UHGV virus genome: UHGV-0311442
DNA from: a virus
Reading direction: 5' to 3' (one strand)
Length of the DNA stretch: 64,000 nucleotides
Under the pieces are notes generated by a model that saw nothing but the letters and a program-made list of their open reading frames with translations, was not told the DNA's origin and searched no databases. Shown piece by piece: positions 1,206-45,982 of the stretch; position 1 is the first letter of the stretch, and each line of letters starts with the position of its first letter. A program made the translations under genes and the position numbers.

Positions 1206-2719
1206 TCAAGCTCCTTATCCGTCAGTATTCGTTTGTTTGAATAATAGCCGCACCACAACCCATGATATTTTTCCCCGATATAAACCAACGCATATTCGAT
1301 ATACTGCCGTTCTGGACGCCGTACCGCCACGTAGAAACGCCCTTCTGGTTCTTTCATACGGTTGATTTCCGTACGCGTCGGTATGTCGATACCACGAGTA
1401 AGGATAGTTTTAACCTTGTTTTTGCTACCAGGGATATGGATAGTTACGTCAAAACCTTTATCTACATTACGATAAAAGTCTTTCTTCGGCTTACCCTTCT
1501 CATCGTAAAGCAGGTCAGTAATGTCGTTCATTACGACTGAGTTTTTCCCCTCCATGGCATCGCGTAACCAACCTGCAAGCTCATCACGAATCGTAATGCA
1601 GCGATAAGACAATAACGCGGGACGAAGAATTCGTGTAATCGAAAGATCTTCAAACATCCATAGGTTTTTGTCTTCGCTAAAATGCATCCGATCGACAGGA
1701 ATACCGTTAGCTGCGGCTTCTGCGAACTTCTTACGTTTTACGAATAAGTTAAAAACAACGGCGATGGGATCAAACTGACGTAAACGGGGCACCCCTTCCC
1801 ATGCTTTCGCAGAGTGGGTATTTACCAACTCGTATACGTTGTTCCATGGTTCTTTGGTAAACATTACGCAGAATTGTGCGTCTGGAATGTACTTACCAAC
1901 GAAGACGATATCGTCCTTCTGTTTTGCATGGTTCCCACCGAACATGTAATAAAGTTTATTACCGTTAACTGTAACCGTGGGATGCGGTTCGTTCACCATC
2001 GGGTAACAGAACTTCGTAACACAGATATCGGGAAAAGCAGACAAATTGACACCTTCACCAACAACTTCTGGTTGCTGTTCTTCCTCAGGCATCTCGTCTT
2101 TTGACCAATACGGTGTATAGTCTAGCCCCTCACCTCGAGCCGAGATACTTGAACCTTTCCGTGCTAACTCGTCGGCACGCTCGTTTCCATAACGCCCTGA
2201 GTGACCTTTAATTTTAAGGACACGAACGCCTTTCCCTTCTTTCTTTAACCGCTGTTTAACCTCCCACATCCGTTGGATTAATTCCAAATTCGCAATGGGT
2301 GTGCCGTCCGCACGACGCCAGCCGCGTGCTGCCCAACCATCAATCCAATCGTTATACGTGTTGACAACGTAAGATGCGTCGATATAGATAACATAGTTTT
2401 TGGCAACGAAAGGGGCGTGTTCGAAGACGGTCAGGAAAGCCACGAGTTCTGCAACGTCGGAGTGTGACATTTTTGGTACAGGCACAACACCGTCAATAAA
2501 CTCCACGGTTTCTGGTAAAGGTGGAAGTTTTTCATCCTTGTTTATCTGGCGGTATCCTGACGTCGTAATCCCCTCGGGAATAGAGGGATGGCGGTAAACC
2601 CGACCATCCTCAATCGTTTCACGATTAAATAAGTATCCATGAATCCCCGCTCCTGTACCGAGCGGGGAGGTCAAATGGCTACCATCCGTGTAAATTACTG
2701 CAACATCAACGTTCTTCAT
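1199..2719 (-). CDS. RNase H-like domain protein with ~300 aa C-terminal extension of unknown function
   Basis: N-terminal DGS... and KIKGHSGRYGNERADELARKG match the RNase HI active-site pattern (GHxGxxxNExAD). Confidence 0.6.
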   Translation of the reverse strand: MKNVDVAVIYTDGSHLTSPLGTGAGIHGYLFNRETIEDGRVYRHPSIPEGITTSGYRQINKDEKLPPLPETVEFIDGVVPVPKMSHSDVAELVAFLTVFEHAPFVAKNYVIYIDASYVVNTYNDWIDGWAARGWRRADGTPIANLELIQRMWEVKQRLKKEGKGVRVLKIKGHSGRYGNERADELARKGSSISARGEGLDYTPYWSKDEMPEEEQQPEVVGEGVNLSAFPDICVTKFCYPMVNEPHPTVTVNGNKLYYMFGGNHAKQKDDIVFVGKYIPDAQFCVMFTKEPWNNVYELVNTHSAKAWEGVPRLRQFDPIAVVFNLFVKRKKFAEAAANGIPVDRMHFSEDKNLWMFEDLSITRILRPALLSYRCITIRDELAGWLRDAMEGKNSVVMNDITDLLYDEKGKPKKDFYRNVDKGFDVTIHIPGSKNKVKTILTRGIDIPTRTEINRMKEPEGRFYVAVRRPERQYIEYALVYIGEKYHGLWCGYYSNKRILTDKELEC

Positions 2720-2721
2720 TC

Positions 2722-3456
2722 TTAATCCCTGGTTAATTGATCACGAATCTGCGGCGCAACATACTCGCCAGTTTTCAGTTCTTCGTGACAGGCTTTGGCG
2801 CGTTCAAACCCGTATTGGCGGGTGACCAAAGCGAGGTGATAAATACGTGCCGTAGTGTAGGCTTCTTTTGCTGCATCCCACATTGCGTGGTGCTCAAAAG
2901 CGGGCTTACCGCGCGTCCAATAAACTTGCTCTACCGTTAAGTCGGGTTCGAAACCAAACGCAAAAGCTAAACGCTCTGCGGTACGATCGCTATCTAACGC
3001 GCTAAATTTACGGAACTTCCCTGGCGGGATATCGCATTGTGCGAATGCGTTCATGAAAACCGGCGCATCGAAGTCGGGACCGCGCATGGTAATAACAAAC
3101 TCATGCTTTGCGGTGATCTCTCCGAGCCATTTTTGCATCGCCCACAGCGCGTCTGGCAATGCTGTTGTTCCACCCCAGGCTTCTTCATACGCTTCACGAG
3201 ATGGTGCGTATTCGGGTTCACCTTTACCTTCCCACCAACCAACGGTTTGTGGGTCTTCGTGGAAAATGGCTTTTGCTTTAGGATCGTTAGGATCAATACG
3301 GATGTATGAAGAACCGACCATTTTCAAGGTAGGGACGTCAAAAGCCACTAAACCTGCACTCAACAGATAAGCATCAGGACGTAACGATTTGGTTTCTGCA
3401 TCAGCACCAATAACCAGTGTCGGTGTGTACGGGGTGACAATTTTTGGGTAGGTCAT
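2722..3456 (-). CDS. DEDDh-type 3'-5' exonuclease (DexA/DnaQ-like)
   Basis: LVIGADAETKSL (D-x-E), PDFDAPVF, HHAMWDAAKEAY (H-x4-D) arrangement; AGGAG RBS. Confidence 0.5.
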   Translation of the reverse strand: MTYPKIVTPYTPTLVIGADAETKSLRPDAYLLSAGLVAFDVPTLKMVGSSYIRIDPNDPKAKAIFHEDPQTVGWWEGKGEPEYAPSREAYEEAWGGTTALPDALWAMQKWLGEITAKHEFVITMRGPDFDAPVFMNAFAQCDIPPGKFRKFSALDSDRTAERLAFAFGFEPDLTVEQVYWTRGKPAFEHHAMWDAAKEAYTTARIYHLALVTRQYGFERAKACHEELKTGEYVAPQIRDQLTRD

Positions 3457-4509: not shown

Positions 4510-4534
4510 TGCTCACCTCGGAGTATTTTTAATT

Positions 4535-5908
4535 ATGTTAGACTTACAAGGTTTTATTCAGATACCGGCACTGTTTGACAATCAGGACGGCGTCACCGCT
4601 CCGGTGGGCGAGCTGTCGGATTTGACACTCTCGTACGCGAAGAGTAAACAGACGTTTACTAAAACCAATTTGCAAGTTCAATTGGTGACTTTTACGTCTA
4701 AACGAGAAAAACAGACGGTTGTTGTGCCAGCCGAGTTTTCTGATCATATTCTAACCGTTTCTCAATGGATTTACCAGCAAGCCATCTTGGGGAATCTGAG
4801 AAATGACGAACTCGAATTCCAGCGCCTGTTATTAGGCCAATTCCAATCAACCATTTCTGGTGTTCAGTCTGGTGCGATGATACAGACGAACAGTAACTGG
4901 TTCCCACGTTGGGTGAGCTGGAAATATGAAGTAACGGCAGATCAAGTACAAGATGACACTGATGTAGATAATCAGATCATTGTTTGGTTCTCGGATGAAG
5001 ACTTCGATCAAGATTACACAGGGTTCGAAATCGAAGTACAGATGCCGATTTCACCAATCGACACATTTTTGTCGACCAAGTCAGTCGTTGAAAAGGCGAT
5101 GGAAGGGTTTAACCTTACCGAACACCATAAGAAAATCAATGAGTTAATGGCAGGGTTTCCTTACACCGCTATCCAAACCAACTACTATACTTGGCACGAT
5201 CAAGAAAACTACGAGTCCACCCTAGTTGTCCCAATGTCGGTTATTATTTACGGACGTGCGGGGAAAAACCCAACGAAAATAAAGCAGGCGTTGCGAGAAC
5301 ATATTCTCGCTAATTCCAGCTTTACTGTCCCTGTCGGGGTAAAAGTATTTCCCGAGATTTTCACTACCACGAAATTTACAATTGTTCCCGGATGGAAAAT
5401 TCGTGGAATACCCAATGAGGAAGATGTGGCGGCGCTTTATTCCCCCATCCTTCCATATGATTTCTGGGTCAAAGCTATCAGTCGGTTTGGAGAATGGGCA
5501 GACCTGACGGTAGCAGAAAGAAATACTAAAACGATCAGTAAACCTACAACAGACGTAACTGACTTACCAACAGTTTATAAATCATTAAACTGTGTTGTAA
5601 TCAGTGGGCCGGAAAACGATACACGGAAAGCGACCTTACACGAAACTATCCCGGATTATGCGTTAATTGCGACGACTAACCCTGATATTGCGCGTATGTC
5701 GAAAACAACGACCGAATGGTTGGCGTTATTCTTCCAGGCACTTATTGCTGCGGAAGAATACCACCCGTATCAAACCAGCTTAGATGTTGTAAAACTGGTC
5801 GATGAGGCCGACCCTGATAACTACTTCTGGGTGTTTGAATACGACAACGTAGAATATCGTATCCTGTCTCGGAAAGCGAAATGGTACACCGAGTTAGACG
5901 AGGAGTAA
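4535..5908 (+). CDS. hypothetical protein (457 aa)
   Basis: long ORF, GGAG upstream, followed 4 nt later by next gene. Confidence 0.5.
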   Translation: MLDLQGFIQIPALFDNQDGVTAPVGELSDLTLSYAKSKQTFTKTNLQVQLVTFTSKREKQTVVVPAEFSDHILTVSQWIYQQAILGNLRNDELEFQRLLLGQFQSTISGVQSGAMIQTNSNWFPRWVSWKYEVTADQVQDDTDVDNQIIVWFSDEDFDQDYTGFEIEVQMPISPIDTFLSTKSVVEKAMEGFNLTEHHKKINELMAGFPYTAIQTNYYTWHDQENYESTLVVPMSVIIYGRAGKNPTKIKQALREHILANSSFTVPVGVKVFPEIFTTTKFTIVPGWKIRGIPNEEDVAALYSPILPYDFWVKAISRFGEWADLTVAERNTKTISKPTTDVTDLPTVYKSLNCVVISGPENDTRKATLHETIPDYALIATTNPDIARMSKTTTEWLALFFQALIAAEEYHPYQTSLDVVKLVDEADPDNYFWVFEYDNVEYRILSRKAKWYTELDEE

Positions 5909-5911
5909 TGA

Positions 5912-6535
5912 ATGGCTACGCGTTTACCACTCCAGGTACCGGTCAACACCACGGGACTGTTCAAAGTAAAAACACCATTTACTTTGGCCGAGACGGTCAT
6001 TTATACGGTAGAAGCGTCACGTACCTTCCCAGATTTAGTACGTCAGAATATTGACGTTTATAACTCGTATTACCAGCCAGTAGGGCTAGGACGTGAAGAA
6101 TATTTAGCAGATGCGAATGTTAGTGCGTCGATTCTGACATTTAAATCTCGGGACGGTCAAGTTGTATATATACCTGACACCTACCTGGAATCATACCCAG
6201 GTTTATCCGGGATCACGTATCAACGAAATGTGTTAGTGGTAGATTTGGCACTGGTACCGGATTACGTGAAAGTGTCGTCTATAACAAAAGACGTTTCAGA
6301 TATTCTCACGCATACACTAGGGATTGAGCCGAAAGTTGAAATTACAACACTCGAGTATGAGGGGAAGGTAACGGAGGAACAACACTTGCAGATGGAAGCG
6401 GCACGAAAAAATAAAATTCGTGAATCTATTCCATTAGGTGAGAAAGTTGCTGCGTTGACAGAAGAGAACAAAAAATTAAAAGAGTTAAACAACCAAATGT
6501 TAGAGATTCTTAAAGCTAACGGGTTAGTTAATTAA
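5912..6535 (+). CDS. hypothetical protein with C-terminal coiled coil (207 aa)
   Basis: GAGGAG RBS; C-terminus KVAALTEENKKLKELNNQMLEILK; followed by terminator. Confidence 0.55.
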   Translation: MATRLPLQVPVNTTGLFKVKTPFTLAETVIYTVEASRTFPDLVRQNIDVYNSYYQPVGLGREEYLADANVSASILTFKSRDGQVVYIPDTYLESYPGLSGITYQRNVLVVDLALVPDYVKVSSITKDVSDILTHTLGIEPKVEITTLEYEGKVTEEQHLQMEAARKNKIRESIPLGEKVAALTEENKKLKELNNQMLEILKANGLVN

Positions 6536-6542
6536 AAAAGAT

Positions 6543-6577
6543 TACCCTACTCCTTCGGGAGTAGGGTAGCTTTTATT
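6543..6577. terminator. bidirectional rho-independent terminator
   Basis: hairpin TACCCTACTCC-ttcg-GGAGTAGGGTA flanked by A-run and T-run between convergent genes. Confidence 0.6.
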
Positions 6578-8723: not shown

Positions 8724-9233
8724 TTAGAAGAACGGCTGGTTTGGAATGACAGCGTACTCTAAAATGAACATGTGTTCTGGGGCGTCTTCTTTACGCCAGA
8801 CTTTGTGCGTCGTCACAAGTTTTTCCAGAATCGTTAAAAAACTACGCTGGCAGTATGTGTTTTCACCAAGCAGTAGATTTTGAAGTTCTACAGTAGCGTC
8901 CATATACGCCTGTTTAAAGACTAAACTACGATTATACTGTCCGGTAAAATTCCAAAGCAAGACTTTCCCTTCTTCGGTTTCTTTTACCGTTGGCCGTAAA
9001 CCACAAATCCACAACAAGGCAAGGTTGACGTTCCAGTCAAACTCTAAACCTTCTTCTTCGTCATCACCGAATGCTGTGGGTAAAGCATCGTAAAATTCGT
9101 GTTTCTCTGCGAATTCTTCATCTGACTTAATCTCGTCTTCGATGCTGCTTCGGACGATACTGTAAACGTCTTTCGCGGTCAATTGTGCGGCTTTTGTAAT
9201 GCCTTTATACCAATCGGTTACTACGATGCTCAA
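8724..9233 (-). CDS. hypothetical protein (169 aa), probable TTG start
   Basis: no ATG near N-terminus; TTG at 9233 preceded by GAGGAG at ideal spacing; overlaps stop of upstream gene. Confidence 0.45.
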   Translation of the reverse strand: MSIVVTDWYKGITKAAQLTAKDVYSIVRSSIEDEIKSDEEFAEKHEFYDALPTAFGDDEEEGLEFDWNVNLALLWICGLRPTVKETEEGKVLLWNFTGQYNRSLVFKQAYMDATVELQNLLLGENTYCQRSFLTILEKLVTTHKVWRKEDAPEHMFILEYAVIPNQPFF

Positions 9234-9928
9234 AGGGTAACTCCTCTATTGATTGGAAAACTCGTGTTTATCGTATCCCAAATTTTACTAACTTCCGCCA
9301 ATTGAATCTGACGTGGTGTTTTCTTCGCAAACGCAAGCTGACGTGGGGCCGAGCCCACAACAACAGGCACATCGATTTTCGCGCTATAGAACGCGGCGTC
9401 TTTCATAAAGCCTGCCATTTCTCGTTGTGCTGCTCGAGATTTGCTTTTGATTCGCGTGTGAGCGCCACTTTCACCCCAGTGGTAAGCTAACGCAACTTCA
9501 GCCATGGTGGGCTTGCGTTTGAGTCGTTTGGTTAACCCCTTTTCAAGATGTTTAACATACGCGGCAGCCAGCAAAACAGCATTACGCGGATTATACAAAT
9601 CGGCGTTCTGACTAAGACCTAATTCTTTTCCATAAAGCCTTAGCAGATTACGCTTGGTACTTGGAAGCATCTGTACCAGGCTGTGTGCTCGTGAGCTTTT
9701 GTTGTAAGCCTTGGGATCAAAACGCGATTCACGATAAATCAGCGTAATCATCAGCTTAGGATCAACGCCTTGCTTTCGAGAGATTTCCACAATTAACGGG
9801 CTGACTTTTTCGAACCGATGTTGGATTTGTGTAAACTCACGCTGATGCTTAGATTGCGGCGTTGATGTTGACGCCTGTGCGTTAAACGCGAAAAGTGTTA
9901 CCAGTAAAAGAAAGAAGATACGAAACAT
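9230..9928 (-). CDS. secreted soluble lytic transglycosylase (SLT domain)
   Basis: signal peptide MFRIFFLLLVTLFAFNAQAS; SLT motifs ITLIYRESRFDP and SLVQMLPST; GGAG RBS before the second ATG (9928). Confidence 0.6.
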   Translation of the reverse strand: MFRIFFLLLVTLFAFNAQASTSTPQSKHQREFTQIQHRFEKVSPLIVEISRKQGVDPKLMITLIYRESRFDPKAYNKSSRAHSLVQMLPSTKRNLLRLYGKELGLSQNADLYNPRNAVLLAAAYVKHLEKGLTKRLKRKPTMAEVALAYHWGESGAHTRIKSKSRAAQREMAGFMKDAAFYSAKIDVPVVVGSAPRQLAFAKKTPRQIQLAEVSKIWDTINTSFPINRGVTL

Positions 9929-10028
9929 TTTGTTTCTCCAGTTGGATTTATACATTTCCGTATTCCGTAAGACGAAATGACGGCGCGGACAGCTAATACT
10001 CCTTTGTTGTGTGCCCTAATGATAATAT

Positions 10029-10526
10029 CTATTTAAAAGAGTTTGGAATTAATGACTCTGCTTCTCGGTACAGCTTATCGGGTAAGTATAACGTGTAGTG
10101 TTGTCTCCTCGGTTCAAGTTTTTTGTAAAGCCACAAAAAGATTTCTTGTCTTTCCCAGGAATCTAACCACCCATTTGCCATCCCCAGTGGAGGGATAGCA
10201 ACGCTGGTATCCAGTTCCTCAACACAATCTGCTAATGCGGTAATGCCCGCAGTAACATAAGAAACCTGGGACTTTAAACGCCAATGTGTTTTCGTTGGGA
10301 GCAAGATGCACTTTTCATCAGGGTAAACGTAAACGCTTCCAATCTTAATTTCGTCTTCGCGACACCGCTTACGGTAATCTTGATAAAGGTTGGGGTAGCG
10401 TTCACGGCACGCCAGTGCAATACCGCGACCCATCGCTCCTACGCAGTTAATGGTAACGACTTTATAGTCTTCGGGCGCATTAAAAAGATCGTTACCAATT
10501 TCAGATTCTTTACGTACCGTTAACAT
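10029..10526 (-). CDS. macro-domain-like protein (possible ADP-ribose-binding/processing)
   Basis: VVTINCVGAMGRGIALA and VAIPPLGMANGW resemble the macro-domain Gly-rich loop and second motif; start set to first ATG (track start is TTG); weak RBS. Confidence 0.4.
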   Translation of the reverse strand: MLTVRKESEIGNDLFNAPEDYKVVTINCVGAMGRGIALACRERYPNLYQDYRKRCREDEIKIGSVYVYPDEKCILLPTKTHWRLKSQVSYVTAGITALADCVEELDTSVAIPPLGMANGWLDSWERQEIFLWLYKKLEPRRQHYTLYLPDKLYREAESLIPNSFK

Positions 10527-10613
10527 AACGAAACGCCCGGAGTTGATGTGTAGTATTAAAACGTGTACCGCCGATTGATAACTCGACAAGTATAGCGATA
10601 TATGTTTTACCCA

Positions 10614-10982
10614 TTAGCGATTTTTCGTAATCCATTGTTTGACCGCCGCTTCTAAACCTTCGTGTTGTAAGCCCAGGCGTTGCATAGTCAGCGCCAAGTT
10701 GAGCGTGTGCACAACCTGTTCACGGAACTGATGATCGTTCATGCGGTCCCAGACCTTCTCTACCGAAATATTGTGTTTCCAGAGCAAATAAGCTTCGCGA
10801 CACGATGCGCGACGAACCAAGCTGGGTTTAACAAAAGGCAACTCGATTTCAGGCAAGTAACCTAAAAGCTTAACTAGCGGCGTTACCTGCGTCTTACCGA
10901 AGTCACCGCACTGATAACAAATTTGTAGAATATCAATTTCATTCAACGGTATACCGTAAATTGATGGGTTCTCTGTGAACAT
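10614..10982 (-). CDS. hypothetical protein (122 aa)
   Basis: strong GAGGAG RBS. Confidence 0.5.
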   Translation of the reverse strand: MFTENPSIYGIPLNEIDILQICYQCGDFGKTQVTPLVKLLGYLPEIELPFVKPSLVRRASCREAYLLWKHNISVEKVWDRMNDHQFREQVVHTLNLALTMQRLGLQHEGLEAAVKQWITKNR

Positions 10983-11184
10983 TCATATTCTCCTCAGGCT
11001 CGAAATGTGTTTCGGGTGGCAACGTCCCTAAAGCCCCTTGGATACAAGCTGTCAGCGTAGGTTTGCCGAAACAGACCTTACCTATTGTCCCCACATTGGG
11101 ATGCTGTAAGAACGCTTTTGCACGTTCGTATTCCTTCCAACAAATACTCGTATCCAAACCACCCACTCCGTACGATTTTAACAT
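10939..11184 (-). CDS. hypothetical protein (81 aa)
   Basis: ORF track; weak RBS; 44-nt overlap with next gene. Confidence 0.3.
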   Translation of the reverse strand: MLKSYGVGGLDTSICWKEYERAKAFLQHPNVGTIGKVCFGKPTLTACIQGALGTLPPETHFEPEENMNVHREPINLRYTVE

Positions 11185-11187
11185 AAT

Positions 11188-11250
11188 TAGCTCTCTTGAC
11201 GTAAATTTCTCACACTCATAGTGAGGTACGTCAAGAGAGCTTGATTGTTT
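11188..11250 (+). other. 15-bp perfect inverted repeat (AGCTCTCTTGACGTA / TACGTCAAGAGAGCT) with nested inner repeat, followed by T-run on plus strand
   Basis: read directly from sequence; terminator-like in plus orientation inside a minus-strand gene block. Confidence 0.5.
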
Positions 11251-11694
11251 TTAGAATGTTTTGCTAAAATCGACCCACTCACGATCGTGCGAGTAAACCG
11301 CCTGATAGCCGCGTCGGATGAAATACTCTTTTGCTTCTTTACATTTCGCATACATGCCAGTAACAATCTCGCCGAAAACTTCATCAGCTGCAATTGCTTT
11401 GAAAATCTCTTTCATTACACCCCGTTGACGGTAGTCTGGGAGCACGTATACTGAACGTATCTTAAGTGAACCGTTACGATTCCGATAACTACAGTATCCT
11501 ACCGCGACGTCATCCTGATACACCAGAACTATGCAGTTACCTTCGATCAGTTGCCGAGCTTTTAATTTCGGTACCGACGTTTTGATTTTCAGTAACGTGG
11601 CCTGGTGGTCTAAGTAACGGTAGTGCAGTTTGAGTAAATCGGCAGCTTGTCGCTCACCGACTTTAGAAGATGCGTTCAACAAATAAATTTCCAT
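11251..11694 (-). CDS. GNAT family N-acetyltransferase
   Basis: acetyl-CoA binding motif YRQRGVMKEIFKAI (R/Q-x-x-G-x-G/A pattern); start re-set to ATG at 11694. Confidence 0.6.
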   Translation of the reverse strand: MEIYLLNASSKVGERQAADLLKLHYRYLDHQATLLKIKTSVPKLKARQLIEGNCIVLVYQDDVAVGYCSYRNRNGSLKIRSVYVLPDYRQRGVMKEIFKAIAADEVFGEIVTGMYAKCKEAKEYFIRRGYQAVYSHDREWVDFSKTF

Positions 11695-11725: not shown

Positions 11726-11854
11726 TTAAAACCAACGCGCGATGACGAAAGCCGCAGCGGCTAATATGGCTGTGGTGATTATTAACCCACCCCATGAAAG
11801 TTCCGCGTCGTATAGTGCGGATATCGCTACATTCGTAGCGTTTATCGTGGTCAT
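11726..11854 (-). CDS. possible small membrane protein (42 aa)
   Basis: unlisted small ORF MTTINATNVAISALYDAELSWGGLIITTAILAAAAFVIARWF with GGAG RBS. Confidence 0.25.
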   Translation of the reverse strand: MTTINATNVAISALYDAELSWGGLIITTAILAAAAFVIARWF

Positions 11855-12020
11855 TTTCTGCTCCTATCAATACCCTCACACCGGAGGGTATCTTCTGGAT
11901 TATTTGGGTGGTTAATCTTCGAACGCCCAACGGTGTCGTTTAATCAGCCAGTTTAAACCTTTACCAATTAACCACAACGAGCCAAGTGTTAACAGAACCC
12001 CTACAACCATATTCCCTCTC

Positions 12021-12200
12021 CTAATTCCGCCATTCGCATTCGCGTTGACGCCAAATTGAACCCCACGATAGTTTAATCAGATAAGATGAAACTACCCATA
12101 AAATCATCACCACACAAAACATGACATAAAGAACCGCTAGAATGGACATGAAGCCAAACCCTGCCGCATCCACAATACGACGGAACCAATCAGTTTGCAT
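12021..12200 (-). CDS. possible small membrane protein (59 aa)
   Basis: hydrophobic core FGFMSILAVLYVMFCVVMILWVV; AAGGAG upstream; overlaps 3' end of ATPase gene. Confidence 0.35.
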   Translation of the reverse strand: MQTDWFRRIVDAAGFGFMSILAVLYVMFCVVMILWVVSSYLIKLSWGSIWRQRECEWRN

Positions 12201-14694
12201 AAACAATTTTTACTCCTTCGTTATACACCGCAGGCAATGTCACCCCTTCCGGTTCGATGACACAGTACGATGCTTCATTAAGTTTAGAATGAACCTCGGC
12301 TTCGTGGGAGACTACCAACAGTTGTGAAAATTCTCCTGAGTTTGCTAACGTTTTAATAAAGCCGACCAGGTTGTTACGGTGCTCCTCATCCATGCCCTCC
12401 GAAGGTTCATCCAAAAGCAACGGAAACTGATGCAACTTCAGCGCTTTGTACGCAGTCAGTCTGAACATCAGATTAAATATCGCACGCTGCGCCTTTGACC
12501 CTTTACGCACGTCAGGAACAGGCTCAGGATGCGTTTTTAGCTGGACAGGAAAAGTATAATCCAAATCGCCGTCAGTGAGATCACAAGGCATAACACGCAT
12601 GGGGTACGTCCAGACCTGTTCGATATAACGCGTCATTAACTCTGTGATTCTAACGATAGCGTTGTAAAAATACTTTCTAAGTACACCCTTTTCTGGCGAG
12701 AAGGCTTGAATCATCAGTTTGTTATTGAACTGCTGGGCTTGTAAGTCAGCAAGTTCGCGTTCCAAACTGTTGAGCTGGTTCAATTCATTTTCCATCTGAC
12801 GATAACGTTCGCGTGCGGTTGTAAAAGCATCCAGCTTCCCTTCTCGTGTACGTAAGAGTTCCTCGACGACCGTATTTGTCAACGTAACCTTAACGTCACT
12901 CTCTAACCGTTCGAATAACGCACTGAAATCATCTACAGCACGTTTAACATTCACTAGATAGGTAAGTGTCGTGTTAGCCAGTTCGTGCTCTCTACGACGC
13001 ATTGAGAGCATCTCTGTGGCTTTACCTAATCGCGACTGTTGGAAGGCGATCTTTTGTTGTAAAGCACCATCGACGTTACCAACGGCCGCTACGGCATCCT
13101 GCCATTCTTTTTCCGCCTTCACTAACCGTTGTCTGGTTTCATGGTACTCAATAGCAGAGTACAACTCACCGTCAAACGCTGCGCATAGACTCCCGAACTG
13201 CTCGCGAGACTCTGTGAAAACGTTACGTTCTTGCAAACGCTTAAAGAACATACTCAAAACAGGGTCCTTTGAATACGTCAGTACAATCTCACGAACCTGC
13301 CGCATATAAGTTACATCAGATTCTAATTCAACACGATCGCGTAATAAGGTCTCTAACTGCGTTTGCAGTTCCGTGCGCTGCTGTTGCTGTCCACGAATCG
13401 AAGACTCAAGTTCAGGCAAAGAACGCGTAACGCCTGGTCGAAACTTAAACCGACACTGCGGACAATCCACTTCCGCTGTTTCTAAGTAGTGGTTACGTTC
13501 GTGATTTAAATTCTGTAAAACGTTCTCCACTCGCTGGAGTCTATCCCGCAACCCGGCGGTTTTTTGATCCATCACCAGAAGCCGTTCTTCCAAAACATTG
13601 AGTTTTTCGGTCGAATGAATTGCGTCCAGCGTTGTTCCTAACCGTTGTCCCCAAACACGCGCGTCGGTAGCCGCACGAAGTTGGTCTAAATTGACGTTAT
13701 CGTTAAATAGACCCGGAAAGAGATGTTCAGTGTCCCATTTGGTAAGTAACTCACGTAAACGTGCCAGCGTATTCTTGAGACCTTCGTGATTCCGCATCAG
13801 GTAGTCCTGTCGTGTCGACTCATCCATCAATAACGACAAGTCTTTATTCAACATCGATACCTCTGTTTCAGTAGACACGACAGCTTCGCGGGCGGTCGCC
13901 TCGTTTTGTCGTGCGACCTGTATCTGTTCATCAGTAGGCAGACCACCACGATGTTGTAATATTGCGTCGATGGTTGGACCCAAGCTGTTTAATGACGCTT
14001 GGATTGTTTCGATGGTGACGCCGCGATTTAATCCTGGCAACTGTTCGATTTCTCGGTTCAGTTCACGTAAATCCGATTCCAAACCTTTTAATCTCGTCGC
14101 TAACTGCTGCCGTTCTTCCTCGTTCTCAATAACACGCGTCCGTAATTCGGCGATCTTACGGCTGGTGATTTCAATACCCCCATTTAAGGCAGTAAGGTTT
14201 TTACGTAAACGTTGATAAAACCCTAACGCGTAAGTGAGGTCAGAGGTGCTTAAACGGTAAAACCACTTGCGACGTAATTCGGTTCCCGCATCGGTTAACA
14301 AGACCTCACCATTTAATAGTTCTTTAATTTCTTTCGTAATACCCGTGATTTCTTCAACACGGGAGTTGTAGACTTTCGCATTACCTTGCTCGACGATCTT
14401 TGCCCCCGTGGTCAGGTTCTCAATATCACAAACCAAAGAGTTGCCTTTACGGGCAACTTTGAATCGATAGCGTTGATCGCCGACTAAACAGTAATTCGTG
14501 TAAGAACCGCCGTCCCTGAATTCAGTTTTAGCTGGTGCTAAGGGTAAGAACACAGACAGTAGACTGGTTTTCCCGCAGCCGTTCCCACCCAGGATAATTG
14601 TTGTTGGAGACTGGATAGTGAAATCGAAGGTTTCAATTTCATGTAACCCCATCCCCGTAAAACCTTTGAGTATAATGCGTTCAACTTTTAGCAT
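12190..14694 (-). CDS. Rad50/SbcC-like SMC-family ATPase with zinc hook
   Basis: Walker A ILGGNGCGKTSLL; long coiled-coil middle; CPQC hook motif mid-protein; Walker B/D-loop LLLDEPSEGMD; H-loop VSHE; start re-set to ATG at 14694 with GGAGGTG RBS. Confidence 0.7.
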   Translation of the reverse strand: MLKVERIILKGFTGMGLHEIETFDFTIQSPTTIILGGNGCGKTSLLSVFLPLAPAKTEFRDGGSYTNYCLVGDQRYRFKVARKGNSLVCDIENLTTGAKIVEQGNAKVYNSRVEEITGITKEIKELLNGEVLLTDAGTELRRKWFYRLSTSDLTYALGFYQRLRKNLTALNGGIEITSRKIAELRTRVIENEEERQQLATRLKGLESDLRELNREIEQLPGLNRGVTIETIQASLNSLGPTIDAILQHRGGLPTDEQIQVARQNEATAREAVVSTETEVSMLNKDLSLLMDESTRQDYLMRNHEGLKNTLARLRELLTKWDTEHLFPGLFNDNVNLDQLRAATDARVWGQRLGTTLDAIHSTEKLNVLEERLLVMDQKTAGLRDRLQRVENVLQNLNHERNHYLETAEVDCPQCRFKFRPGVTRSLPELESSIRGQQQQRTELQTQLETLLRDRVELESDVTYMRQVREIVLTYSKDPVLSMFFKRLQERNVFTESREQFGSLCAAFDGELYSAIEYHETRQRLVKAEKEWQDAVAAVGNVDGALQQKIAFQQSRLGKATEMLSMRRREHELANTTLTYLVNVKRAVDDFSALFERLESDVKVTLTNTVVEELLRTREGKLDAFTTARERYRQMENELNQLNSLERELADLQAQQFNNKLMIQAFSPEKGVLRKYFYNAIVRITELMTRYIEQVWTYPMRVMPCDLTDGDLDYTFPVQLKTHPEPVPDVRKGSKAQRAIFNLMFRLTAYKALKLHQFPLLLDEPSEGMDEEHRNNLVGFIKTLANSGEFSQLLVVSHEAEVHSKLNEASYCVIEPEGVTLPAVYNEGVKIVYAN

Positions 14695-25331: not shown

Positions 25332-28300
25332 ATGGCTGTCGTCCTAGACCCACACTTCAAAAAACCGGGGAATAAAATAACCGGTGAAGCGGTCGCCGTC
25401 TTTGGTACGAAATACCGAATGTTGGTACCTGCCCACGCCCCTTTTTTCACCACATCCCTGGTGGTCAAGAGCGGCGGCAAAACACTGACCATAGGCGACG
25501 ATTACGTTATTACGCACCCGTACGAGACCGGTATGTTGCGCACAGCCTATCTCATTCACGGGATGATTTGGATTGTTAATGACAAATACAAATCGAATTT
25601 TACGGTAGATTACCACGCCGTTGGTTGTGGTCAGGCTACCCAACAACAGATTACCGCAGAACGCGAACTCAATAAAGATAAATACCCGTCTGCGTGTCAG
25701 TGGGACACCGTCATCGGGGACGTTTACTTTCCACCGGTCGATATCCAGTTCGATTGGGAGAATTGGAAAGGTGAACTGGAATTAATGCAGGCTATTGCTG
25801 GATTAGGCGATTCGTTAGGGGAAGTCGTGAGTCGGCTTAACCCCATCGCACGCAATACCCTGGATTTAGAATACCGTGCTAATAGCAAGGTTATCACTTC
25901 CGAGCAGTATGCCGTATACGACAATAAAGGTGGCTTCACCTACAACACTGCCCGTCATCGTTATAGCTTGAGTTATAAAACTGCAACCTTTAACGACTAC
26001 GCCCTGTCAGTGAAACACAGAATTCCTGCTATTCTGCCAGACATGACGAAATTGAATCCAAACGAACAGATCGATTGGATGCTCTGTTATGCTAACGGCG
26101 GTGCAAGTATTCTACGGCTGCAGCTAAAACAGCGCAAAATCTCACTGGTCTTAACGGTCGCTATTGGTAGCGGTTCAACAAACTACGATTATACGTTAAT
26201 CAACGGCTTAACTGACGATGAGTTAAAAAACGATATCGATTTTAGTGTAACCCGACAACCCGGAAACGGTGTTTACGTCATCGTAGTAAAAACAAATAAA
26301 CAGACCATGGATTACACATTCAATGTCGATACGCCGCCTGATGAGTTCTCGGCAGGGTATTCGAAAACGGATGTTGCTAAATGGTTGAAGTTTAAAACGA
26401 ACATTAATTTAAACTGGTATGCGGCCGAAAACGATTATATTCAAATTCGTTCTTTACCCGGCGCACCAGAACCTGACATCGATAACGATGTTTACCAGTT
26501 AATAGTCAAATACCATCAGTTAGTTGAGCAGCTGTATCGTAACGCGCCTGCACACGAACACGTTACACGTAAGGACAACCCGCACACCGATACGTGGGGT
26601 CCGATCCGTGCGTTAGAGCTGAATGGTATTGCGACAGATGCCGCGTTAGCTTACGGGAAGACGAAACAGCAGTTAACGGATTATGTTAATGCTAAGTACC
26701 CAACACAAGCAACGTTAACCGCACAGAAAAAACTGCTTCGTGAATCGCCGAGCAAGAACGTTAACGGCACGATTACCACACTTCCGGGTTTTACTTCGTT
26801 CACGACGGAAGTTGATCCGGTCTCGATGTCGAAATACGTGAGTCCTTATTTTAGCGAAAGCTATGTTAGTAGTGGTCACAGATATCACGGCGCGCTTCGT
26901 TATACAGGAGCGAAAAGCGGTTTCAGTGCTAACTTTAATGCAGTGCCTGCCAACCTGCAAGATATTGACTTTATTGTTACTGGACGTAAAACAGCGTCTG
27001 GTAATGAAGCGGTCGGTAGGGTTGGTTTACGTTTCTACGAAAATCCTGGTAGTAACTCCGGTAAGTACGTAGAGATTACCGGTGAAGTCTGGTCCGGTAC
27101 TCTTACTATCGAACTGGCGTTGCACGGTTACGGTAGTCCGGTACCGGCAGTTCGGTATATTTCACAAGCTCCTAACCCGGCAATACCGGATGGGGATTTT
27201 ACGCTACGTTTTCAACTGAAGCGTACAGGGAATGTGTTTGACGTCGTTATTACCGTAAACAGTAAAACGTATAGCGGTAGGATTAACTTCAATAACATGG
27301 ACGCTGCGTTAGAAGCATTAGAGAATCAGCACCACTTTAAATCGCTGATCAATAATGTTGCCGACGCCGTTACCATTAGTTCGCAAAACAAAGGTAACAC
27401 GGTTACCATTAAGAAAGCACCGGATGTTGTTGACGAGACACGTTTAGGTGCCCAGTTTGTTGTTGATCCGAAATCCATCAAGTTTATTGGCCAAGGTTCA
27501 ACTGATGTTAACGTGGCTAACAACCCCGTAACGTTCCAAGCAGGTACTAACCAGCTTGTGCTATACCCCGATGACCGAGGATTGTTGTGGCGTGGTAAAA
27601 AACTCTTAGACCCCACCACCGTAGCCCCGTATCTGCCAGGCAATACCGCAGGTGGCACAGGTTTATTCTACGCAAGTTCGACAACAACGGTTACGATCAC
27701 CGGTAGCGGGATAAAAGCCTCGCCGTTCGTAGCGACCTTTATTCTTCCTACCGCGACCGATACAACAGCTCTGGCAGCTTGGCAGTTGACCGATGAGTTC
27801 GGTACCGCTGAAAACCTTGCAGCAACGCCAGCACTGATTGAAAAACTCGATGCGGAGTTCACCGGTAAGTTAGTTGCAGTTAAATCGTACATTAACGACA
27901 TGCAACTTACCAGCTCGGTTACTATCGATAAGATTACCTTTGGTTTAGGTAACGTTGCGAATACGCCTGATGTCGATTTACCGATTTCTACAGCACAACG
28001 TGCGGAGTTAGATAAATACTCGCCTAAAGTTCACCAACACCCGTTTACCGCTTTTGGTACAGGGAACGCAACCACAGCGCAACGTGGTCTGATTAAATTT
28101 GGTCTGGATGTGGATGATGCGACTTTAGCACTCGATGGGAGTGTGGTAATGGCGCAGACTTCCCAGATTGAAAAATTGGAGCGCGCTGTCAGCGGTGTTG
28201 ACTCGGAGGCACGTCTTGACATTATACGTTTTGGTGAGTCTGGTAACGACTTAATAGACGTTACGGTCAAAGACAAAATTCTGGTCACGCTTCCAGCTTC

Positions 28301-29654
28301 AACGTATTTTATCGGTGGTGAAACATACGACGTTCCGTTGATGACGATTAACGTCAGTGAACGTTTTCCGAAATTGAATACAGAAATCTACGCAGGGATT
28401 TTTGTTGATATTGTTGACAACAAAGCGAAGTATATTGTCCACGACAGCTACAGTCAGGCTGAAACGGATACCATGACGCGTGTAGGGTTGATTGGTGTTA
28501 ACGACATTTCTGAGGTGTTCGTTACGGAGATGCGTAATGTCACACGGTTGGGCGATTTCCGTGAACTGAAAGATCATAAAGCCGATGACAACGCACACAT
28601 TCAACGCTCCGCGTCACGTGCAGCGCTTGGGTTAGCTAACTTAACCGTAGGTGCGCCTTGCTGGGCTTCTGGACTCCAGGCAGTAGTACGCGGTGAAGCA
28701 GATTGGCGTTATGTTGTCGATGGGCAGTATAAAGCCTTAGACGGGGTGAAATACGACCAGCTCGCATCCAAGTGGATTTTTGACGCGAAAGGGGTAAGCG
28801 ATAACCTGCACGGGTTTATCCACAGCATGTTCCCAGCTTTTAAGAACGCAGGAATGCGGGTAAGTTGGGAAACAGAAAGTAACGCAAAAACCGGTACGGT
28901 GCTAGAAACTGTTTTAGGATGCTGGAAAAACACCGACGGCGAGTTTATGCGGTTGTCGTTACTTATCACTCGTGGTTATCGTTTAACTGACAGCAACGGT
29001 GAATATTGTTACGCAGGGTTCGGTTTGAACTTCGGTAGCGGGAAATCGGTAGTGTTAGGTTTCACACCAACGAAGCGTGTTACGCCTGCACCGTGGAATA
29101 CGTTACAACCTGACGTAACGTTTACCCACACCCGTGCTGCAAATAACGCAATAACGTTTAACGCAACATTGACCTTAGCGGGCACTACGTATACCATCGT
29201 GGTGTTTTTATCTGCGACTGATAAATACGTAAGTTGCACGGCAGCAGGGGGAGCTACGCAGAAAATCCCTCTAACTGACCGTTTAACTGGGTTCAATATC
29301 GCACCTATCGTTAACGATCCGTATACCCCTATTTACTACGGTTTAGGGGGACTTTATGAGGATGAAGTTCGTGCCAACATCCGTTCTACGGCAGATAGCG
29401 CAACCGCGAATAAAGTCTATGGTACGTTGTTAGACTATATTAGCAACTATTCCTCATTAAATCGTGTGCGCGTTATGGAATTGACCGGTGTCAGTTCAGA
29501 CCCCGAAACGCTTAATGCGTTAGTGGCAACTGAATTTAATAACAACCTGGCGGATTACGCTGCGTTACCGATACCTCCTTATCTTAACAAGGAGCGCGTA
29601 ATGTCGTTTATCGACACCAACAATAAAGTGCAGGCGGTAATCATTCGCGATTAA
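25332..29654 (+). CDS. tail fibre protein (1440 aa)
   Basis: AGGAG RBS; tail-fibre-type repeat motifs (GNVANTPDVDLPISTAQRAEL; GNATTAQRGLIKFG); N-terminal PFF module shared with the next three genes. Confidence 0.65.
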   Translation: MAVVLDPHFKKPGNKITGEAVAVFGTKYRMLVPAHAPFFTTSLVVKSGGKTLTIGDDYVITHPYETGMLRTAYLIHGMIWIVNDKYKSNFTVDYHAVGCGQATQQQITAERELNKDKYPSACQWDTVIGDVYFPPVDIQFDWENWKGELELMQAIAGLGDSLGEVVSRLNPIARNTLDLEYRANSKVITSEQYAVYDNKGGFTYNTARHRYSLSYKTATFNDYALSVKHRIPAILPDMTKLNPNEQIDWMLCYANGGASILRLQLKQRKISLVLTVAIGSGSTNYDYTLINGLTDDELKNDIDFSVTRQPGNGVYVIVVKTNKQTMDYTFNVDTPPDEFSAGYSKTDVAKWLKFKTNINLNWYAAENDYIQIRSLPGAPEPDIDNDVYQLIVKYHQLVEQLYRNAPAHEHVTRKDNPHTDTWGPIRALELNGIATDAALAYGKTKQQLTDYVNAKYPTQATLTAQKKLLRESPSKNVNGTITTLPGFTSFTTEVDPVSMSKYVSPYFSESYVSSGHRYHGALRYTGAKSGFSANFNAVPANLQDIDFIVTGRKTASGNEAVGRVGLRFYENPGSNSGKYVEITGEVWSGTLTIELALHGYGSPVPAVRYISQAPNPAIPDGDFTLRFQLKRTGNVFDVVITVNSKTYSGRINFNNMDAALEALENQHHFKSLINNVADAVTISSQNKGNTVTIKKAPDVVDETRLGAQFVVDPKSIKFIGQGSTDVNVANNPVTFQAGTNQLVLYPDDRGLLWRGKKLLDPTTVAPYLPGNTAGGTGLFYASSTTTVTITGSGIKASPFVATFILPTATDTTALAAWQLTDEFGTAENLAATPALIEKLDAEFTGKLVAVKSYINDMQLTSSVTIDKITFGLGNVANTPDVDLPISTAQRAELDKYSPKVHQHPFTAFGTGNATTAQRGLIKFGLDVDDATLALDGSVVMAQTSQIEKLERAVSGVDSEARLDIIRFGESGNDLIDVTVKDKILVTLPASTYFIGGETYDVPLMTINVSERFPKLNTEIYAGIFVDIVDNKAKYIVHDSYSQAETDTMTRVGLIGVNDISEVFVTEMRNVTRLGDFRELKDHKADDNAHIQRSASRAALGLANLTVGAPCWASGLQAVVRGEADWRYVVDGQYKALDGVKYDQLASKWIFDAKGVSDNLHGFIHSMFPAFKNAGMRVSWETESNAKTGTVLETVLGCWKNTDGEFMRLSLLITRGYRLTDSNGEYCYAGFGLNFGSGKSVVLGFTPTKRVTPAPWNTLQPDVTFTHTRAANNAITFNATLTLAGTTYTIVVFLSATDKYVSCTAAGGATQKIPLTDRLTGFNIAPIVNDPYTPIYYGLGGLYEDEVRANIRSTADSATANKVYGTLLDYISNYSSLNRVRVMELTGVSSDPETLNALVATEFNNNLADYAALPIPPYLNKERVMSFIDTNNKVQAVIIRD

Positions 29655-29667
29655 GGAGATTTTTTTG

Positions 29668-32600
29668 ATGAAAGCGTATCCTTACGATCCTCGGGGGACG
29701 AAAGCCGAGAATCACTTCTTAGAGGAGCGTATCATCGGGTCAGAAAATAACAACGATCGGGTGGTGATTTTAGACCATCGCCCGTTCTTTGAAGATTTAG
29801 TCGTCAGACAACCAGGTTCAACCACCCCACTGAGTCGTGGGGTGGACTACGAACTGCAATATCAGCTGACGGAACTGGATGACTCGGTAGCAGCCAACGT
29901 GTATTGTGGGGTACACCTTATCAACCCATCCATCAAAGGCATCGTAACCTTTGAAGGGCAAATGCTCGGCGGTACGTTCTACGACCCGTTTGTTGATATT
30001 CTCGATGAACTGGTGAAATATTTGAATAACCCAGTCAGTGCTGACTGGCTGTTATTAGACGGTAGACCATCGTTATATCCAGCGACGCCAGCAGCAACGT
30101 CCTGGGCGGATTTGCTGAACAAAAAATATTTAGCGTCGGCAGTTCACGATATTGAATTGAAAACCGACGACGCTAACCAGCTAATTAAAGACAAATTAGC
30201 TGAAGTTAAAGCGTTAGTGACTGCGTTGGGTAAAGAAATCGAAGCATTTAACTACCCGGCACATATCGCAGCGAAGAACCCGCACGAAACCACATCCGCG
30301 CAGATTAACGCGCATCCTGTTAACTTGAAAACACCCGACACCTTTATGGCGTACGGGTTAAAGTTGAAAGCACTGACGGATGAGCTGAAAGCGTTTCGTT
30401 TACCGCAGTCGGTTATCGATACGTATATCTCTCACTGGATTTCTTCGGAAGTGCGGGGCGTGTTTAACTGTACGGTGTCAGGAAACCGCGCACAGTTCCG
30501 TTCGAAAAACGGTGAGTCCGAAATCATTTTTGCCAACGATGGTTTTACGTTAAAATCCAACGGTTCTGTGGTGTTAGCGGTAGGGCATCTGGAAGGCACA
30601 GGTGCAGGACGCTATATCAACTGGCGTGCCGGTAAAAACACATTACGCATCGAGTCAACAGGCGATGCTTTAGGGATGAACAAACTCACCCTGAACGGTA
30701 ACCCGTTACTGACTACCACGGCGTTGATGGAATACCAACAAGATCCAGATGCGGGTTCTGGTGGCGGTGGCGACCCTGATGACTCGAAGGTGTACATTGA
30801 AGGTCGTAATGGGATTAGCTTTACCGGTAAAGGTTCTCGCGCCGACCCTATCGTGGGGACTATCGACCCAACAAAAGCGACAACCGCCGAAAAAGGCGTC
30901 GCTAAACTTAAAACAGGTAAAGGTACAGAAACGACTGGGGTTGCTGCAACACCGGCTTCGTTAGCACCATACTCGACCGACCTATCGGGGTATGTGGCTA
31001 AAACGACCATGATTAACGGTAAGCCGATGAACGACGGCTCCAGGACAATCACGAAAGCTGATCTGGGGTTAGGGCGAGCGGATAACACCGCAGACGTTGA
31101 CAAGCCGTTGTCTACCGAGTTAAATACGGCGCTTAGTGGTTTAGCGGATGCAGGTCACCACCACGATTGGTCGGAACTAGGCATTTATAAAGCCTCGCAA
31201 ACCGTTTACGGTATCGGTCGTTACGCAACTAACCAGAACGGTTTGGTTGAAAACCGTGCAGTGGTGCCGAACGTCTTAAAAGAACTTTCGGCGCGTTTAG
31301 ATGTGGTCGCCGCGGCGATTGCAAACGCGAAAGAAGGGTCGGTAACAGATTTCGCTGCGGTAAAAGGCGCAGACTGGCGCTTTAATAGCCAGGGTACGGC
31401 AATCTCCGTTCAAGATTTGAAATATTTCTATTTGCTGAACGGTGCGAAAGCTGATAGCGCCGTTACAGGTTCGATTGACCTGCAAACTACGCCGATGTTT
31501 AACTGGTTCTCACCGAACAACCAAATTGAGACGACCTGGCCTACGGGGAAAGTGAGTGCTGGTAAGGGCATTAGCTGGACAGGTATTGAAGAACCACCAC
31601 TAATGGGTTTCCAATCTGTTCCGGTAGGTAAAACTGCCTCACAGATGGGCGACCAGTCAGTTGTTACTGTGTTGGCCAAAACGCGGGTAAGAGCACGCCA
31701 GCCGAAGCTTTGGGTTTATGCCGCTGGAGGTGGCCCGGTTACAGTTTACATTAACGGTATCCAGGCAGCCACAGGCCAGTCTCCGCTCGTTGCAGTGTAC
31801 GAAACATCAGCGGACGTTGAAAACTACACCGTAGCGGTTAAAGCTGAGTGTAGCGACACGGCTAAATCCGCAGCGGTGCAATTCGAAATTTACGACGGTG
31901 ACTACCCCGTTTATTTCAGTGGCCCTGAAACGCACGTAGAGCTTCTCCAAGAGTTTGTTACAACACACGTAGGCATTCGTCATTATCTGTACGTTAACAT
32001 GCTCACAGGCTCTCTGTATTCGCGTACTGAGCCAATTCAGAGTATTGCAGTTGACCCTGAGCGCGGTTATATCGGCTACGTTGATATTGTTGCCGGTGAA
32101 TCTTACTCGAATAAAACCGTGAGTTTTGAAACCACGTTTGATTTCGGGAAAAGTACCGAGGTTAGTGAGCACATCGACGCTCGTAAAGCACACGGACTCA
32201 GTTCTGTAGACTGGACGTTAACGGATAACCCACGGTTGCCGTTATTAAATCGTGCGATTGCTGAACCGAGAACGTGTATTTTTAGAAAAGCGTTAACGGC
32301 CGGTACTGGTGATGTTTTTCATCTGGTAAGTCGTGGTCTTTATACCTACGCACACAACCAAAACGTGAAGTCCAGTCTTCAATACGTTGTGATACCTGAG
32401 GGTGCTACACCGTATTGCTGGTTTACACCGTTTAACCCGAAAGAAAACAACGCGCCGACGTTCGAAGGTTCGTTTGCGTTCGACGTTGACGATGTCGGTG
32501 GAACACAAGCACTCACGGCTGCACCGGATTTGGTGCTGTGTACGTCAACACAAGGTAGCAGCGTTAAACGTCGTTACGTACGTATTGACCTAACTGCCAA

Positions 32601-33849: not shown

Positions 33850-33887
33850 GACAGGCTGCCTGCGGGCAGTTGTGTGTCCGTAGGTAA

Positions 33888-33924
33888 CCCCTCCCTGTAA
33901 TGGGGAGGGGTATCCATTTTATTT
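33888..33924 (+). terminator. rho-independent terminator
   Basis: hairpin CCCCTCCC-tgtaa-TGGGGAGGGG followed by TATCCATTTTATTT. Confidence 0.55.
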
Positions 33925-33943
33925 AAAAGTAGGAGTCTTTACG

Positions 33944-45926: not shown

Positions 45927-45982
45927 GAAAAAAAATAGTATACCTACCTCCTATTACGGGAGGTAGGTATTTTTATTTTTTC
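45927..45982. terminator. bidirectional rho-independent terminator
   Basis: hairpin TACCTACCTCC-tattacg-GGAGGTAGGTA flanked by A8 and TTTTTATTTTTT. Confidence 0.65.

Follow-up and report, generated by a model that had tools for sequence, protein, structure and literature searches.

AdfM (anti-DarT factor macro) is a macrodomain protein described in the phages PhiKZ (gp104), PhiPA3 (gp108), Goslar (gp83) and Asesino (gp217), of which Asesino has been published as nucleus-forming (Morgan et al., Cell Rep 2026, PMC13309987). The PhiKZ protein removes the ADP-ribose that DarT2 installs on thymidine in a TNTC oligonucleotide, an activity that is lowered by mutation of N23, and on its own it fully rescues DarT2 toxicity (PMC13309987). 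PhiKZ lacking AdfM is exposed to DarTG2, and AdfM is needed for growth on DarTG2-positive hosts (PMC13309987). The AdfM proteins of PhiKZ, PhiPA3 and Asesino localize to the phage nucleus (PMC13309987). Here we analyze a 64,000-nucleotide stretch of the UHGV virus genome UHGV-0311442 (hereafter the window), in which a macrodomain gene related to adfM and a gene for a GNAT acetyltransferase lie close together on the minus strand, between positions 10029 and 11694.

For the acetyltransferase, the nearest described comparison is RimI, a GNAT whose substrates include ribosomal protein S18 and elongation factor Tu (EF-Tu), both acetylated at the N-terminus (PMC9079301). The phage protein shares the GNAT fold with RimI, some GenBank records label it "ribosomal-protein-alanine acetyltransferase", and the connection to EF-Tu is suggestive given that the GNAT is followed by a small open reading frame (ORF) with an EF-Tu-like segment, hereafter the mini-ORF. 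We found no description of this GNAT/EF-Tu-like module in the searchable literature. As an overall explanation, we consider it probable that the interval consists of two separate units and not one pair: an AdfM ortholog, and a module made up of the GNAT, a conserved hairpin and the mini-ORF.

Results

The macrodomain gene (10029-10526, minus strand) encodes 165 amino acids when started at the ATG indicated by its orthologs, while the mechanically called ORF extends to a TTG at 10589. An initial annotation of this DNA, made from the sequence alone, had called the product macro-domain-like. This assignment is confirmed by Pfam Macro (PF01661), which the protein matches at 27.2 bits (cut-off 22) over residues 25-116, and neither the profile searches nor the PDB sequence search pointed to any fold other than a macrodomain. 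The match can also be narrowed to a subfamily. In NCBIfam, antitoxin_DarG was the sole match (3e-36, profile positions 7-155 of 338), and the DarG model of PADLOC matched at 3.4e-37. The best PDB match was the DarG macrodomain of Mycobacterium tuberculosis (5m3i, 3.9e-26), with that of Thermus aquaticus at 4.2e-21 (5m31/5m3e), while the next macrodomain not of DarG/DarTG type had an E-value of 0.019. Identity is 40-43% to the M. tuberculosis and T. aquaticus DarG macrodomains over about 115 residues, 61% to Asesino gp217 (YP_009290835.1) and 34% to PhiKZ gp104. The gene is also syntenic with that of Asesino gp217, as both have an SMC-like gene upstream and a transglycosylase gene downstream.

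The residues used for catalysis in this subfamily are in place. N27 aligns with N22 of T. aquaticus DarG and N23 of PhiKZ AdfM, and K79, which lies in a PTK motif, aligns with K80 and K78 of the same two proteins. Both glycine-rich ADP-ribose loops are kept, as VGAMGRG (consensus VGxMGxG) and PPLGMANG (consensus PPLGxxNG). Against the NCBIfam equivalog model for full DarG (NF048014), the protein reaches 125.4 bits with a cut-off of 250, a shortfall that fits a macrodomain lacking the C-terminal half of DarG, and PADLOC and Pfam detected no darT among the neighboring ORFs. Judged by sequence, the protein is an orphan DarG-type macrodomain and an ortholog of AdfM. It is predicted to be a thymidine-linked DNA ADP-ribosyl glycohydrolase that counters DarT2, where we infer both activity and target from its relatives. 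Since the phage is close to Asesino, whose AdfM enters the phage nucleus, the protein probably acts inside this compartment. It would hydrolyze the ADP-ribose that host DarT2 puts on thymidine of single-stranded phage DNA, using Asn27 and Lys79, and this removal would let phage replication and packaging proceed in hosts that carry DarTG2.

The comparison with described systems supports a close kinship with AdfM of chimalliviruses, as these are stand-alone macrodomains of about 160-166 amino acids that are DarG-type in every profile and have the catalytic Asn and Lys. However, the window protein differs from the named AdfMs in coming from an uncultured lineage. With the DarG antitoxin it shares the catalytic residues and the predicted chemistry, ADP-ribose removal from thymidine of single-stranded DNA. 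In contrast to DarG, it has neither the C-terminal DarT-binding domain nor an adjacent darT, and it is encoded by a phage and directed against a host toxin instead of a cognate one. As an AdfM ortholog, the protein is an antitoxin-derived macrodomain that has lost the DarT-binding half of DarG. As far as their descriptions go, two other phage factors also neutralize DarT as stand-alone antitoxin-like proteins: an orphan enzyme of T4-like phages acting against DarTG1 (PMC11825919) and an antitoxin mimic acting against Vibrio cholerae DarTG (PMC11481870). The same descriptions set both apart, as they target other DarTG systems and occur in other phage groups.

Pfam Macro by itself under-calls the family. 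Gp184 of phage EarlPhillipIV (3983-4480 of the extracted locus), which is annotated as hypothetical, gave no match at E<=0.01, and the homolog in phage Kwan scored only 16.7 bits.

The initial annotation placed the macrodomain and GNAT genes about 700 base pairs apart on the same strand with two small ORFs between them, and coordinates, strand and spacing were all correct; the gap measures 724 base pairs. It further proposed the two as a candidate anti-defence or host-modification pair. The counter-defence role of the macrodomain is supported by its homology to AdfM, but functional pairing with the GNAT is not supported. DarG-like macrodomains occur in 276-281 phage records, including PhiKZ-like, phiEco32-like, Thermus, Vibrio, Streptomyces and T4-like phages, compared with 50 records for the GNAT. 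PhiKZ-type genomes carry AdfM without a neighboring GNAT. In the Derbicusvirus EarlPhillipIV, the order from the SMC-like gene to the macrodomain gene is kept and the macrodomain is 50% identical, and there is neither a GNAT (by Pfam) nor the NVGTIG motif of the mini-ORF. The two proteins also differ in conservation, as across related jumbo-phage loci the macrodomain is 50-65% identical but the GNAT only 28-40%; to the more distant macrodomains of PhiKZ-type phages and Moabitevirus, identity is 34-37%. An obligate macrodomain-GNAT pair is not supported by this distribution. Their closeness reflects that both are located inside a conserved syntenic block reaching from the SMC/SbcC-like gene to the transglycosylase gene.

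The GNAT gene (11251-11694, minus strand) is the first of the interval in the direction of transcription and encodes 147 amino acids, with a start (MEIYLL) that agrees with the M-x-EIVIL of its orthologs. That it encodes a GNAT, as initially annotated, is borne out by Pfam Acetyltransf_1, _7 and _10 (33.2, 32.9 and 27.0 bits, all above their cut-offs) and by an AlphaFold2 model with the GNAT fold (mean predicted local distance difference test score, pLDDT, 92.4). The protein also matches phrog_3810 (1e-25). A Foldseek search of the model against the PDB gave 544 matches at E<=1e-3, and the best 50 of the 544 were all acetyltransferases, with TM-scores up to 0.72. Among the top matches were uncharacterized GNATs, a Helicobacter protein acetyltransferase, PaiA and several N-terminal acetyltransferases, none of which stands out, and no specific subfamily emerged from the PDB sequence search, NCBIfam or Foldseek. 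RimI was considered and rejected, since the protein scores 17.4 bits against TIGR01575 (cut-off 86.4) and E. coli RimI (5isv) ranks only 48th by fold. The NCBIfam model for ArsN2 was matched far under its cut-off. Motif A of GNATs (Q/R-x-x-G-x-G/A) reads RQRGVM in this protein; the last position, normally Gly or Ala, is invariably Met, and in the members from SPN3US-type phages the Gly of the motif is replaced by Lys. Motif A binds the pyrophosphate of acetyl-CoA through backbone amides, and because of this the deviation speaks neither for nor against enzymatic activity.

The GNAT family is narrow. All but one of its 50 phage records belong to SPN3US-, Asesino-, Machina- or Wellington-type jumbo phages, and no more than 35 matching proteins came out of a database of 5.8 billion clusters. 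By this sequence distribution, the family is restricted to this group of jumbo phages. The mini-ORF has nearly the same range, with 48 phage records, and the two sets nearly coincide. In IMG/VR, the GNAT and the mini-ORF were found on exactly the same 11 contigs, while the other 17 loci with an NVGTIG motif were EF-Tu genes with intact P-loops, either full-length or ended by a contig end or a stop codon. In the window, in 7/7 phage genomes and in 4/4 metagenome contigs, the mini-ORF follows immediately after the GNAT, and the spacer between them is 66-71 nucleotides, or 82 nucleotides in Kwan (Wellingtonvirus). Thus, the two genes are inherited strictly together, and the mini-ORF is the consistent partner of the GNAT. 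In the window the two are in the same frame, separated by one TAA and 22 sense codons (11182-11253). A read-through fusion is unlikely, as the frame is shared in only 3/6 of the genomes compared, not clearly above the 1/3 that chance would give.

The 66-nucleotide spacer from the GNAT stop codon to the ATG of the mini-ORF contains a hairpin (11189-11241, minus strand), whose arms (11189-11203 and 11227-11241) form a perfect stem of 15 base pairs. Its folding energy is -31.2 kcal/mol (z = -7.4), and the same hairpin was predicted in all related loci that were folded. In an alignment of 12 sequences, the 14-base-pair outer stem is 92.8% paired and 8/14 pairs show compensatory double changes. These values were reached by 0/500 shuffles, and slid controls were 30-56% paired. 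The 3' arm contains the Shine-Dalgarno sequence of the mini-ORF, which reads AGGAGAG in most genomes and AAGAGAG in the window and is placed 8 nucleotides before the ATG, and the GNAT stop codon lies 4-13 nucleotides ahead of the stem. The hairpin hides the ribosome-binding site of the mini-ORF, and from this arrangement we infer that translation of the GNAT and the mini-ORF is coupled through the hairpin.

No Rfam family matched the hairpin. A repeated, generic promoter or terminator element was tested for by searching for copies of the loop motif, and was rejected, as the motif is present in a single exact copy in the window. The apical loop, CACTATGAGTG (11211-11223, minus strand; core TATGA), lies outside the outer stem and yet hardly varies between genera. 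In SPN3US and Caitlin, an AUG in the loop is in frame with the mini-ORF. The TATG of the loop also resembles the late-promoter motif reported for PhiKZ.

The mini-ORF itself (10939-11184, minus strand) encodes 81 amino acids and matches phrog_28329 (2.2e-16). Its conserved core, residues 28-48, HPNVGTIGKVCFGKPTLTACI, is a copy of EF-Tu residues 11-31 (HVNVGTIG...), a segment made up of strand beta-1, the P-loop and the beginning of helix A, and the copy has a degenerate P-loop. Several members have up to 12 consecutive residues identical to EF-Tu, and in Asesino, Huxley and ChrisDB, 12/12 positions are identical to residues 11-22 of the E. coli protein. The copied part roughly equals the small separate N-terminal chain in structures of trypsin-nicked EF-Tu (2hcj, 5i4r). 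The mini-ORF matches the NCBIfam EF-Tu models weakly but repeatedly (1e-4 to 4e-4). With a profile of the mini-ORF family, true EF-Tu fragments were retrieved at 5e-6 from the 5.8 billion clusters, and 71 PDB matches were obtained, of which the best 59 were all EF-Tu (top 5.7e-8, EF-Tu residues about 7-38). Across 28 family members, N30, V31 and G35 are invariant, and H28, G32, T33 and I34 are nearly so. A few GenBank records already label the mini-ORF "putative elongation factor Tu".

Despite this resemblance, the mini-ORF is neither a functional EF-Tu nor the product of recent gene conversion. With 69-112 amino acids in the family, it has no G2-G5 motifs and no domains II or III, and it has an N-terminal motif of its own, CWxEYxR, as well as a GALGTLP motif. 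The Walker Lys/Thr is replaced in most members (HSRS, FDDT, FSGS), as seen when the P-loop of the window (GKVCFGKP) is compared with those of its relatives (GHVDHSRS, GRVAFDDT). A role as EF-Tu or another translational GTPase is rejected because of this loss; an intact GxxxxGK[ST] is absent, and Pfam GTP_EFTU scores 12.1 bits with a cut-off of 26.5. Recent gene conversion from tuf is likewise rejected, since third-codon positions at identical residues match tufA in only 2/14 to 9/15 cases. As the synonymous sites have diverged from tufA, the identity to EF-Tu has been kept by selection at the protein level. The AlphaFold2 model of the mini-protein alone has a pLDDT of 54.8, a low value that fits a protein folding on a partner.

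In Wellingtonvirus (Kwan and pEa_SNUABM_11), the motif is kept as NVGTIGHV[DE]WGM.PLTAA[VI] in an otherwise different protein. Here, the mini-ORF is split: the ORF that follows the hairpin has CWxEYQR, while the EF-Tu motif is in the +1 frame, in what is annotated as the downstream ORF. The arrangement is identical in the two independently sequenced genomes (5093-5498 in Kwan and 4517-4952 in pEa_SNUABM_11, as positions of the extracted loci), with both parts conserved, and may represent either a gene split in two or programmed frameshifting.

The window has relatives at protein level only, as a megablast of the region against GenBank phages gave no match. Its SMC-like protein is 71% identical to those of Asesino, an Erwinia phage, and phiEaH2, and 58-60% identical to those of SPN3US-type Salmonella phages. 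The order SMC-like gene, small ORFs, acetyltransferase, small ORFs, macrodomain and transglycosylase is common to Asesino, SPN3US, Huxley, ChrisDB, pEa_SNUABM_29, Kwan and four metagenome contigs. In IMG/VR, four contigs of 107-225 kb encode a GNAT that is 84-100% identical to that of the window. Because of these protein identities, the shared synteny and the IMG/VR contigs, the window is, by sequence, assigned to a jumbo phage that is uncultured, about 221-225 kb in size and a relative of the genera named here.

The remaining genes of the block follow the same layout. Between the mini-ORF and the macrodomain gene lies a small ORF (10614-10982, minus strand; 122 amino acids) that matches phrog_11720 (8.7e-31), is 32-42% identical to the syntenic ORFs of Asesino, SPN3US, Huxley, Kwan and the metagenome contigs, and gave no match in Pfam, NCBIfam or PADLOC. 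Because its ATG version overlaps the mini-ORF by 44 nucleotides, the true start may be a TTG at 10946. Both small ORFs are conserved genes and not chance ORFs, as they have PHROG matches as well as tblastn matches in related genomes, although the EarlPhillipIV locus lacks a counterpart of the 122-amino-acid ORF. Downstream of the macrodomain gene is an SLT transglycosylase (9230-9955, minus strand), and upstream of the GNAT is the SMC/SbcC-like gene (about 12190-14694, minus strand). Three tiny ORFs of 42, 32 and 61 amino acids (11726-12206, minus strand), hydrophobic and membrane-like, are found between the SMC-like gene and the GNAT, and small ORFs occupy the equivalent position in Asesino, SPN3US, Huxley and Kwan.

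Elsewhere in the window, three consecutive giant ORFs of 1440, 1394 and 1727 amino acids (25332-39127, plus strand) encode mutually related virion structural proteins that cross-match phrog_7557, 8078, 7449 and 2163, and a radical SAM domain protein of 440 amino acids (43414-44736, plus strand) matches phrog_1802 (1.3e-114). An ORF of 712 amino acids (58659-60797, minus strand; phrog_143) was considered as the nucleus shell protein and rejected, as it is an esterase of the NanS/SASA type. Across about 80% of its length it shares about 50% identity with the NanS-p/SASA-family 9-O-acetyl-sialic-acid esterases of Stx-converting prophages, and the 347 phage records that match it are nearly all Stx or lambdoid phages. 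Jumbo phages do not usually carry such a gene, and its presence hints at a host that is enteric and mucus-associated. Intergenic regions contain three strong inverted repeats (6534-6577, 45929-45981 and 58621-58655), whose arms measure 17-23 nucleotides; two of the repeats have flanking A/T runs. The repeats resemble bidirectional terminators, and their sequences have no relation to that of the hairpin between the GNAT and the mini-ORF.

Discussion

Two separate units were considered above to be the probable content of the interval, and the alternative closest to the initial annotation is that the macrodomain and the GNAT work together, with the GNAT either making or using an acetylated ADP-ribose species or modifying a target that the macrodomain de-modifies. 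DarG belongs to the TARG1/OARD1-type macrodomains, and such enzymes hydrolyze O-acyl-ADP-ribose as well and are broad in vitro. The two genes are never separated within the approximately 50 genomes that have both, which weighs against our explanation, as does an unrelated GNAT in Moabitevirus (Serratia phages Kodama, Moabite and others) that overlaps the start of the macrodomain gene by 38 nucleotides (Kodama, 2532-3441 of the extracted locus). This overlap is the sole independent GNAT-macrodomain adjacency found, and its 10 records represent one lineage. Since jumbo phages carry several GNATs each, one chance adjacency among many lineages is unremarkable, and we count it as weak support. Cooperation is unlikely given that the macrodomain is several times more widespread and occurs without the GNAT in PhiKZ and Derbicusvirus, that two to five variable ORFs separate the two genes, and that the mini-ORF is tightly coupled to the GNAT as a downstream partner. 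In addition, PhiKZ AdfM neutralizes DarT2 without any helper (PMC13309987). The macrodomain could also act on a substrate other than DarT2-modified DNA, such as ADP-ribosylated protein or RNA, O-acetyl-ADP-ribose or ADP-ribose-1''-phosphate. The in vitro breadth of TARG1-type enzymes would allow this, phrog_335 is labelled "phosphatase", and many GenBank records of the macrodomain are labelled "Appr-1-p processing". Two features of the protein speak against the DarT2 prediction: its clade has NGW in the second phosphate-binding loop where DarG and PhiKZ AdfM have NGG, a change that could shift specificity, and its identity to the PhiKZ protein, the sole biochemically tested AdfM, is only 34%. 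However, the subfamily searches prefer DarG over other macrodomains by more than 20 orders of magnitude, and the "phosphatase" labels are propagated annotation with no experimental origin. As PhiKZ AdfM acts on thymidine-linked ADP-ribose and is required on DarTG2-positive hosts (PMC13309987), we regard a different substrate as improbable.

For the GNAT and its neighbor, the competing explanation is that the mini-ORF is a decaying, functionless tuf remnant and that the hairpin is the transcription terminator of the GNAT. Most members have lost the Walker lysine, no confident fold is predicted for the mini-protein alone, the gene is divided over two frames in Wellingtonvirus, and a U-rich stretch follows the stem; the hairpin could instead be a terminator or an RNA-stability element. 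Decay is nevertheless difficult to reconcile with an ORF that is open in every distinct locus examined, with HxNVGTIG and GALGTLP invariant or near-invariant while synonymous sites have diverged, and even the split version in Wellingtonvirus conserves both halves. A terminator alone would also leave aside that a good Shine-Dalgarno sequence is placed inside the 3' arm in all genomes, and that this hairpin is kept in sequence and position across genera, whereas the other terminator-like hairpins of the window are unrelated to it. A functionless remnant therefore seems doubtful to us, about as much so as a cooperating macrodomain and GNAT.

How a functional GNAT-hairpin-mini-ORF module might work can be outlined only tentatively. 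Ribosomes that end GNAT translation would open the stem and expose the ribosome-binding site of the mini-ORF, so that both proteins are made together. The mini-protein may then serve as a partner of the GNAT, and our best guess, weakly supported, is a pseudo-substrate, a regulator or a specificity adaptor. The module would act on EF-Tu or on a factor that recognizes its N-terminal segment. That enzyme and partner are co-expressed as a pair and directed at EF-Tu, or at a factor recognizing its residue 11-31 segment, is possible, although we would not bet on it. With similar reserve, we suggest an undescribed, translationally coupled two-protein module of nucleus-forming jumbo phages that may act on host translation or on a defence that reads EF-Tu, with the mini-protein as decoy, pseudo-substrate or targeting adaptor, through which the acetyltransferase or a host factor would be offered the beta-1/P-loop segment of EF-Tu.

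Several observations weigh against this outline. The copied strand is buried in native EF-Tu, and simple surface mimicry is unlikely for that reason. The phage GNAT is not RimI-like, and while RimI acetylates the N-terminal serine of EF-Tu, the mini-ORF conserves residues 11-31 instead. The missing fold of the isolated mini-protein and the possible terminator function of the hairpin, both mentioned above, belong here as well. What counts against the other unit, the AdfM ortholog with its probable place in the phage nucleus, is that neither the gene for the nucleus shell protein (ChmA) nor PicA was identified in the 64-kb window.

The macrodomain part of the interval is of an already published kind. 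It adds an uncultured lineage of jumbo phages to the range of AdfM, a protein not described before 2026, which is of value for annotation but unsurprising, and it leads to the prediction that DarTG2 is encountered by these phages in their hosts. More deserving of follow-up is the GNAT-hairpin-mini-ORF module, in which the partner of an acetyltransferase keeps up to a dozen residues of the EF-Tu strand and P-loop across several phage genera while the GTPase function has been discarded. If the module does modify or imitate EF-Tu, it would give large phages a new way of dealing with host translation or immunity, and such mimicry of a host translation factor would be of a kind new to phages.

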